NCBI GenBank assembly: GCA_965214605.1
Contig: OZ243961.1
Span: 4,248,129 to 4,312,128 of the forward strand
Reading direction: 5' to 3'
Source: an uncultured Candidatus Binatia bacterium
Lineage (GTDB): Bacteria; Desulfobacterota; Binatia; Bin18
DNA length: 64,000 nt
Positions 2,138-12,421 of the stretch are shown here, in pieces. The position numbers were made by a program, and so were the translations under genes. Numbering within the stretch: position 1 is the first letter of the stretch; every line of letters begins with the position of its first letter. Below the pieces are notes generated by a model. It worked only from the letters and a program-made list of their open reading frames with translations. It was not told the DNA's origin and made no database searches.

Positions 2138-2159
2138 GCTGAGCGACCCGTCGCTCAGC
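2138..2159. terminator. Hairpin downstream of BVMO (terminator/REP-like)
   Basis: GCTGAGCGAC-CC-GTCGCTCAGC perfect 10-bp inverted repeat; no U-tract. Confidence 0.4.
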
Positions 2160-2189
2160 CCGGCCTCCTCCACGAAATGGGAGAGGGGC

Positions 2190-2350
2190 AGCTTCGGCAT
2201 GCCTTCCTCGCGGCAGCGGCGGCCACTCGTGGGCTCGCTGTCGTGACGCGGAACACGGGCGGGTTCCGCAACGAAGAGAGATGTGGCTTCCCCTGTACAG
2301 TTGCTGTCGTGACGCGGAACACGGGCGGGTTCCGCAACACCGGCGTCGCG
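2190..2350 (+). pseudogene. PIN/VapC toxin C-terminal fragment with internal duplication
   Basis: AFLAAAAATRGLAVVTRNTGGFRN..TGV matches the VapC C-terminal AxAxxxxLxxVTRNxxxF motif. Confidence 0.7.
2237..2338. repeat. 36-bp direct repeat x2 around a 30-bp unique spacer (mini-CRISPR-like)
   Basis: GCTGTCGTGACGCGGAACACGGGCGGGTTCCGCAAC at 2237-2272 and 2303-2338, identical; spacer 2273-2302. Confidence 0.95.
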
Positions 2351-2620
2351 ACGGGCGGTATGAAGGCGCAAGAGGCCGCCGGCGCCGCGAGTTGCAAAGG
2401 AGTCACCCCTAATTCGCCGGCCAGGGCCGCGACGACGGGAAGGAACGCCGCCGTCGCGGCCGTATTGCCGGTGAGCTCGGTCAAATAAATGACGAGCGCC
2501 ACAAGACCCAACACCAAAACGACGGCGGGATAGACGCCCAGCGCCCGCAGGCCGCCGCCCAGCCACTGGGCAAGACCGGTCGAGCCGATGGCCGCGGCCG
2601 GACTGAGGCCGCCGGACAAA
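2340..2620 (-). pseudogene. DASS/SLC13 anion symporter fragment
   Basis: GGLS..STGLAQWLG..YLTELTGNTAATAAFLPV..AASCAFIPPVATP. Confidence 0.75.
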
Positions 2621-11679: not shown

Positions 11680-12421
11680 GCAGGTATCAGCCGGACACGG
11701 CCTCGGGTGTCCAGGGCGACACCCCAACCGACGAGAAGAAGACCCGGACGATCGGACAGCTGCACCGGACCAGCAGGGGACTGACCATGGAACTCGTTGT
11801 TGCTTCTGTTCTCTGTTACCTCAACCACCCCAAAAGAAGTCGCGTTGAATTGTGCCCTGAACGAGAGGGGATCCTAAGCAAGGCCGCGGCGGGCCGCCAG
11901 TCCGACATCCTGGTTACGCCCGCGAATGTGAATACCTTTCAGGTCGTCTGTGCAGTGAGCGCCAACAAGGCAATGAGCGATGGCAAGTCCGTGGACCAAC
12001 TCGACGCAGCGCTCAAACACGCTCGGAAGTATAACGAGGAGGCCGAGGTGGTTATGACTTATGTGCTGCTGCTGAATCTCCGGGAAATCGGCCGCGACCG
12101 GCGCCTCCACCAGAAGTTTCAAACGTTCGTGGAGGAGCATTCGGACGAATTGCGCTTGTGGGCCCCATCCGATTCGTGTCCATGGAGGCGGCGGAACTCG
12201 CGGTTCTGGTGAATCGGTTGCACTACGAGGAGGAGAGGCTGAACTTCCTGAGTATGGTGCTCGCCGAGGCATTCGATTTCCTGCACGCGAGTATGTTCGC
12301 CGAGAAACTCCCGGAGGAAGAGCGGTGGATGTCTGACCTCGCGGTCAATACGGTCGAGCGTGACGCAAAGCAAAGGGAGGGAGGCGCGGACCTGTTTCCG
12401 GCACCGCGGCCGCCACTATAG
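11680..12421 (+). pseudogene. Putative restriction-endonuclease-like protein, frameshifted near 12165
   Basis: Two overlapping frames; AAAGRQSDI..VVCAVS resembles a degraded PD-(D/E)xK core. Confidence 0.35.

Follow-up and report, generated by a model that had tools for sequence, protein, structure and literature searches.

In the chromosome of an uncultured Candidatus Binatia bacterium (G000), two identical copies of a 36-nt sequence enclose a 30-nt insert within the remnant of a toxin gene. We interpret this unit, with a probability of roughly 0.88, as the product of natural off-target (i.e., ectopic) spacer integration, carried out by the type II-C Cas1-Cas2 that the genome itself encodes. 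The original prediction had read the site as a natural fossil of spacer integration outside any array, and several lines of evidence agree with that reading: the type II-C geometry of the unit, a donor for the insert in the cell's own chromosome, an empty site in other samples, a homolog of the host sequence in which the target is present as a single copy, and a resemblance between the target and the native II-C repeat. Throughout, "the window" denotes the whole 64,000-nt stretch of DNA that was analysed (G000:C1:4248129-4312128); positions given without a contig name refer to the window, and those introduced by a contig name (C1, C4 and so on) refer to the genome assembly.

Structure of the unit and its host sequence

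The unit is built around an exact direct repeat of 36 nt (100% identity), whose copies occupy positions 2237-2272 and 2303-2338 and are spaced 66 nt from start to start; the insert fills the 30 nt between them (2273-2302). The exact duplication around a 30-bp insert was thus present as first described, and direct reading also confirmed two further details of the 36-mer that had been pointed out, namely a 7-nt inverted repeat (at its positions 12-18 and 27-33) and a reverse complement that begins GTTGCGG. A genome search returned no further copy of the 36-mer in the 4.37 Mb of the assembly, and by simple 4^-n arithmetic neither a perfect repeat of 36 nt nor another perfect copy of a 30-mer is to be expected by chance in 4.4 Mb (probability of the order of 1e-11 or less). 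In what follows we refer to the two copies of the duplicated target, to which no strand was assigned, as neo-repeats, and to the insert as an ectopic spacer, whose crRNA-equivalent sense we infer to be the minus strand.

A transposable element with target-site duplication was considered for this structure and rejected: the 30-nt insert has no terminal inverted repeat, it has a single other copy and belongs to no family, and the duplication is 36 nt long. Target-site duplications of transposable elements are usually short (2-15 nt).

The sequence that hosts the unit is the C-terminal remnant of a VapC/PIN toxin gene (2138-2355, plus strand), a pseudogene fragment of roughly 36-45 codons with a stop just upstream. 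It is recognisable by its homology to a 149-aa ORF in another genome (G056), which carries a PIN domain (PF01850, 48.2 bits) and is preceded by a FitA-like antitoxin. Residues 18-45 of the remnant match the C-terminus of this ORF with 68% identity (E = 1.2e-5) up to the residues FRN, and the second copy of the 36-mer, together with the sequence downstream of it, aligns contiguously to residues 124-140 of the homolog (AVVTRNTGGFRNTGVAT versus AIVTRNRAEFRNTGVET, 12/17 positions). Across the junction the homolog runs from ...VTRN..FRN directly into TGV.T, with nothing that would correspond to the 10 inserted codons.

The remnant can be aligned only to the last ~30-40 residues of the 149-aa PIN protein. 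It gave no Pfam match even at E values up to 10, and no significant PIN paralogs were found within its own genome. A complete PIN/VapC toxin gene (a PIN domain takes up ~120 residues) was therefore rejected, given the missing Pfam match, the presence of the C-terminal part only and the upstream stop. Of the earlier statement that the insertion lies inside a PIN gene, the PIN homology stands, while the gene itself turns out to be a dead C-terminal remnant. Since the host gene was already dead, the insertion came without cost to the cell.

The surroundings are of the same kind. A remnant of a CitMHS/DASS-type anion transporter lies on the minus strand at 2344-2613 (residues ~40-129 of the ORF at 2155-2730), with Pfam matches that cover the C-terminal part of the profile only and stay below the cut-offs (PF03600, 25.3 bits against a cut-off of 31.9; PF00939, 25 bits against 27). 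The interval 2110-2634, from the monooxygenase gene to the next ORF, is in effect a gene graveyard in which the plus-strand VapC remnant abuts the minus-strand transporter remnant, and this stretch is not conserved in 40 relatives.

Empty and filled sites

Both states of the site were found among public runs. In X1 (study P1) and X6 (study P2), the contig joins position 2236 to position 2303, skipping exactly 66 nt, with 0 other letters changed across 1950-2440; being contigs, these sequences are blind to minority alleles. By contrast, X3 (study P2, another sample) displays the four-unitig pattern of a filled site, i.e., left flank, 36-mer, a 90-nt unitig of repeat-insert-repeat, and right flank, with the 36-mer at about double depth (16 versus 7-10). 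At either junction, the near side of the 90-nt unitig comprises 30 letters, one fewer than the 31 that the bridging rule requires. The inserted form was found only in the assembly of the window and in runs from a single study, and X3 may be the very sample from which the assembly was made.

The event is a precise gain of 66 nt that is recent and strain-variable, i.e., polymorphic. We consider it recent because both copies of the target and the donor of the insert are still identical and because the insertion varies between strains. A single-copy ancestral state, which was to be sought in PIN homologs, is documented twice: by the homolog, which is contiguous across the junction, and by the empty-site contigs of X1 and X6.

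The X7 contig (study P3) agrees with the window over 1950-2104 only and then continues into unrelated AT-rich sequence, so that it is uninformative about the site itself; in this related strain, something else lies next to the monooxygenase gene. Among species-level relatives compared by DNA, 25 of 41 genomes matched, in each case within the monooxygenase gene alone (query 1 to ~610-678), and none covers the feature.

Origin of the insert

The insert is an exact copy (30/30) of G000:C1:1462643-1462672 on the opposite strand, and this is its one second copy in the genome. The 30 bases had been taken to be unique, i.e., novel to the cell; they are instead self-derived, and it was a search of the 30-mer against the host, as the original prediction had proposed, that revealed the donor copy in the chromosome. 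The flanks of the donor and of the insert are unrelated, with identity ending exactly at the borders of the 30-mer. The donor locus is present in 4/4 runs examined, empty-site runs included, and X1 and X6 retain the donor 30-mer within its own flanks. At the donor locus we found no match to an Rfam family and no overlapping ORF of at least 70 aa.

Read in the crRNA sense, the 3' flank of the donor is TGGTTGCC.... One self-match of an array in a genome of the same family (G057; 27/30 positions) has a 3' flank that reads N4-TGC, as does that of the donor, an agreement too thin to count towards a PAM. Searches with native spacers gave little to compare: the native II-C array had no protospacer match in phages and a single 27-nt match in plasmids, which is at chance level (E = 0.3); the 3' parts of two native II-C spacers had 0 matches each in IMG/VR; and the arrays of G000, G006 and G057 found no full-length protospacer in 55 genomes of the family, the matches in G042 and G064 from that search comprising merely ~19-20 contiguous nt.

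The type II-C system and its geometry

The genome encodes a type II-C system with the layout cas9-cas1-cas2-array at C1:528.8-534.6 kb, its genes being open frames, full-length and apparently intact, that adjoin the array. These are Cas9 (1080 aa; TIGR01865, 613.6 bits), whose nearest counterparts of solved structure are Cas9 proteins of ~1082 aa, a type II Cas1 (314 aa; TIGR03639, 255.4 bits) and Cas2 (118 aa, 72.4 bits). All repeats of the array (17/17) are identical and 36 nt long, and its 16 spacers measure 30 nt in 11 cases, 31 nt in two and 29 nt in one, the other two being 37 and 47 nt long. The length of the duplication thus equals that of the native II-C repeat, and the length of the insert equals the modal II-C spacer length.

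Altogether, the genome contains 8 Cas1-family and 7 Cas2-family matches and several arrays. Because the other large arrays differ in geometry (repeat plus spacer of 28+33, 37+39-51 and 38+33-40 nt) and none shares 36+30, the latter combination is the signature of the II-C system alone in G000. The view that 36+30 is a type II geometry therefore held for this genome, with the subtype now specified as II-C; the comparison with the genome's own cas1, cas2 and array lengths, which had been suggested as a check, led to a cas9-cas1-cas2 locus with 36-nt repeats and with spacers of 30 nt in 11/16 cases. Among the observations that count against the II-C reading of the focal event is the length of native spacers: the two cas2-proximal spacers (C1:529815-529934), which are presumably the newest and are surrounded by perfect repeats, are 47 and 37 nt long, not 30 nt.

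Directly upstream of cas9, a 22-mer (C1:534601-534623) matches positions 12-33 of the II-C repeat at 20/22 positions. We regard it as a candidate tracrRNA anti-repeat that would be transcribed divergently from cas9; the same arrangement occurs in G057. A search for an anti-repeat with the first 26 nt of the II-C repeat returned nothing relevant.

Several features of native arrays are recorded here in their own right. Related II-C arrays contain duplicated spacers, with one adjacent pair in L029 (G006) and two repeated spacers in L030 (G057), and the G057 array also includes a 70-nt "spacer" that contains a degenerate repeat. In G000, three native spacers (C1:51258-51299, 3218149-3218181 and 3170433-3170465), one from the 37-nt-repeat array and two from the 28-nt-repeat array, are matched at 100% elsewhere in the chromosome and are self-targeting or prophage-targeting.

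Leader orientation and resemblance of the target to the repeat

A flank of ~50 nt between array and cas2 is common to the II-C arrays of G000, G006 (same genus) and G057 (same family); by our own count, ~43/50 positions agree between G000 and G006. The cas-distal flanks are unrelated among the three arrays, and the cas-distal terminal repeat of G057 is degenerate, with 3 mismatches. On these grounds, the acquisition leader of the II-C array is probably its cas2-proximal, transcription-downstream end. Passages on Neisseria meningitidis that mention a "leader-adjacent repeat, R26" agree with a leader at the transcription-downstream end (PMC12477760), and a leader at the cas-distal end was rejected on the strength of the three-array comparison and of those passages.

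With a cas2-proximal leader, the plus strand of the window corresponds to the leader-to-repeat reading. We found that one end of the target agrees with the end of the native repeat at 7/8 positions (TCCGCAAC versus TCCGCAGC), agreement at least this good having a frequency of 0.00075 in a random-window null, and that the target agrees with the native II-C repeat overall at 18/36 positions (random-window null for 18/36 or better, 0.0012). Under a conservative null, in which the best of 2 orientations and 5 offsets was taken, the resemblance has p = 0.0072. No similarity was found between the focal target and the three other native repeats of the genome (p = 0.30-0.44).

On the leader side, if the leader is cas2-proximal, the junction of the target agrees with the native leader-repeat junction at 6/13 positions (-5 to +8), i.e., there is no resemblance. 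In type II-A systems, the leader-repeat junction is the main determinant of integration. By direct reading, both attacked 5' nucleotides at the target are G. At one of the attacked positions the native II-C repeat carries an A, and this, like the unmatched leader side, counts against the II-C reading.

Solitary units across the genome

We scanned the genome for all solitary exact direct-repeat pairs with a length of at least 24 nt, a gap of at least 8 nt and a period of up to 300 nt. Of 38 such pairs, 27 had a period of 60-79 nt, which corresponds to the periods of the genome's CRISPR arrays. Removal of 3 internal tandem repeats, 2 mini-arrays beside cas remnants and 1 duplicate contig left 21 curated events; the multi-unit loci C1:711165 and C1:1706198 had been left out by the "solitary" filter. 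The curated events fall into 28+33 (4 events, to which one 27+34 and one 27+33 can be added), 36+30 (1 event) and ~34-38+35-43 (about 10 events). As a 36+30 event the focal unit stands alone in this genome, which leaves the II-C class with no replicate. The classes just listed are the sharp duplication and insert length classes, matching the genome's own arrays, that a genome-wide scan had been expected to show if the original prediction was right. Inserts with a second genomic copy of spacer length were found in 8/21 curated events, compared with 3/227 native-array spacers.

Units that match the native 28+33 array (28+33, 27+33 or 27+34) lie at C1:91695, 500128, 1399850, 4089123, 3921609 and 2692053, with a two-spacer unit at 711165; four inserts of this class have second genomic copies (974074, 1691840, 915880 and 1215783). 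Targets of 28 nt show a tendency to be similar to the native 28-nt repeat (7/7, with p values from 0.002 to 0.23). Units with a period of 70-78 nt (~34-42 + 31-43) lie at C1:2103855, 3068860 (the same as C4:3868), 916264, 1880827, 1967748, 2197075, 2360674, 3676203, 1509183 and 1692739, and at C6:7607. They resemble the 37-/38-nt-repeat arrays in period, and two of them have self donors (862446 for one; 2646355 and C5:5574 for the other). Targets of this 37/38-nt class mostly show no resemblance to native repeats, so the case for off-target integration, as judged from the target sequences, appears weaker here; a non-CRISPR duplication-insertion process may account for this class.

Two further loci were noted alongside the scan. 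Positions ~12163-12190 of the window (C1:4260291-4260318) match the insert of the three-copy unit at C1:1706198 at 27/28 positions and may be its donor. The unit at C1:125263-125344 (period 61 nt) has an insert that copies 33 nt just past the last repeat of the 28+33 array, and this 33-nt source itself looks like a degenerate repeat.

On the whole we lean, with reserve, towards the broader view that G000 records off-target integration which is rampant, still continues and involves no fewer than two, and probably three to four, adaptation modules (28+33, 36+30 and ~37-38+35-41), with ~21 solitary units of which ~40% contain self-DNA. Under this broader view, immune-silent units would preserve the unselected output of acquisition that is purged from functional arrays, and would keep giving rise to in-frame insertions and disrupted genes while supplying raw material from which new arrays could form.

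Alternative explanations

The restriction of the inserted form to the assembly of the window and to the runs of one study, possibly its source, is what one would expect if a chimeric join in assembly or sequencing had set the 30-mer between falsely duplicated copies. The four unitigs of X3 with their doubled 36-mer depth, however, are the pattern that a real loop leaves at k=31; the donor locus, where the flanks differ, cannot be the source of the junction words; and a single error is hard to reconcile with the ~20 other units of this build that the chromosome contains. We consider an artefact extremely improbable. If the event is real, it may be asked whether another Cas1(-Cas2) module of the genome was responsible, i.e., one of the 37-/38-nt-repeat systems, the type I-E-like system with 28-nt repeats or the Cas1 that stands alone at the type V-C locus. 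Cas1-family and Cas2-family matches are numerous enough (8 and 7), and repeat lengths of 37 and 38 nt are near 36. An insert of 30 nt, though, is outside the spacer ranges of all of these systems (33-40 and 39-51 nt, 33 nt in the 28-nt array, and ~18-20 nt in the V-C array), and the target is unlike their repeats at the p values given above, so that an origin from another module is highly improbable.

A more general doubt is whether any CRISPR machinery was involved. A process of "insertion plus compensating target duplication" that copies short pieces of the cell's own DNA would make the 36/30 match to the II-C array a coincidence, and it would accommodate both the 37/38-nt-class targets, which are mostly unlike their presumed cognate repeats, and the odd splits seen among units (e.g., 42+31, 26+39 and 25+53). 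Yet the lengths 36 and 30 each fit the II-C array separately and not just when summed, the 28+33 class follows the native 28+33 array in the same way, with 4 exact matches and 2 that differ by no more than 1 nt, and of all the native repeats compared, the focal target is similar to that of the II-C array alone (p = 0.007). Moreover, we know of no bacterial transposition or repair process that yields a 36-nt target duplication. Such a process is, in our judgement, very unlikely to account for the focal unit, and we retain off-target integration by the type II-C Cas1-Cas2 as the preferred explanation.

Proposed mechanism and probable immune silence

If the type II-C Cas1-Cas2 made the unit, a prespacer would have been cut from the cell's own chromosome and loaded on the complex, which would then have docked on the dead VapC remnant, at a target similar at one end to the terminus of the true repeat. 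Two strand-transfer attacks on opposite strands, 36 nt apart and both at guanines, would have joined the prespacer to the target, and gap repair would then have duplicated the 36 nt. Neo-repeats that lack a promoter-like box and the part that matches the anti-repeat would give no working crRNA; the matching chromosomal target would be spared, and the unit would persist as a neutral, strain-variable scar.

The neo-repeat keeps 18/36 positions of the true II-C repeat and does not conserve positions 12-33, the stretch to which the candidate anti-repeat corresponds. By direct reading, the neo-repeat also lacks the TATACT-like box that the native repeat carries at its 3' end and that, in view of work on Neisseria, we take to be a promoter. 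Judging from these sequence features, a functional crRNA from the ectopic unit is unlikely, because its neo-repeats match the true repeat by half and lack both the box and the part that matches the anti-repeat. A functional II-C mini-array was rejected on the same three features. The intact donor site fits with the absence of a functional crRNA.

Discussion

The focal event is most likely a natural instance of a misfire that is known mainly from laboratory work. Its value lies in the combination, within one natural event, of a cognate II-C system, a donor, an empty site and a target that resembles the repeat. It would provide a natural data point on what the II-C integrase recognises, namely an end motif (TCCGCA) and a 36-nt ruler, and would suggest that self-derived spacers are taken up and tolerated where the landing site makes no crRNA. 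The genome-wide set, in which self-derived inserts make up 8/21 against 3/227 in native arrays, would let nature measure how often self-DNA is sampled and how often the array is missed.

Non-canonical spacer integration giving "neo-CRISPR" loci was reportedly described by Nivala, Shipman and Church in 2018 (Nat Microbiol 3:310), and an off-target origin is said to have been proposed for isolated or orphan CRISPR arrays by Shmakov et al. in 2020 (CRISPR J 3:535). In our limited literature search, we found no description of natural type II-C integration outside an array. Off-target acquisition is cited as one of three proposed origins of arrays that lie away from cas genes (PMC13142298). The isolated arrays treated there are recognised as CRISPR, whereas ours consists of one unit, in which ordinary gene sequence takes the place of the repeat and for which an empty-site allele exists.

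Among type II systems, the Cas1-Cas2 of the II-A system of Streptococcus thermophilus (Kim et al. 2019) offers a close biochemical parallel: guanine is preferred at both attack sites, off-targets mimic the native leader-repeat junction, and the second site is fixed by an element of the repeat that lies close to its leader-distal border (PMC6895254). Our event shares with it a 36-nt repeat, two opposite-strand attacks at the borders, guanines at the attacked positions and a junction mimicked at an off-target site. It differs in that the S. thermophilus results come from in vitro and plasmid experiments in which off-targets mimic the leader-repeat junction, whereas here the similarity is at the inferred leader-distal end of a II-C repeat and the leader side is unmatched (PMC6895254).

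The native locus of G000 is similar to the II-C system of N. meningitidis, with cas9-cas1-cas2, a 36-nt-repeat array and a leader beside the last repeat in transcription order (PMC12477760). [quoted passage not shown]

A close precedent for the product itself is the neo-CRISPR locus. Off-target integration of this kind was shown in type I-E E. coli, with only circumstantial evidence for two other species, according to a preprint that cites the work (10.1101/148544); the work is also cited in PMC7054753. Like the neo-CRISPR loci, our unit combines a spacer-sized insert with a repeat-length duplication of a non-CRISPR chromosomal target and involves the cell's own Cas1-Cas2. In the neo-CRISPR work, as described in these citing texts, the system was type I-E of E. 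coli with over-produced Cas1-Cas2 and supplied oligonucleotides; here the system is a natural type II-C, the donor has been identified in the same chromosome, and the empty site has been observed.
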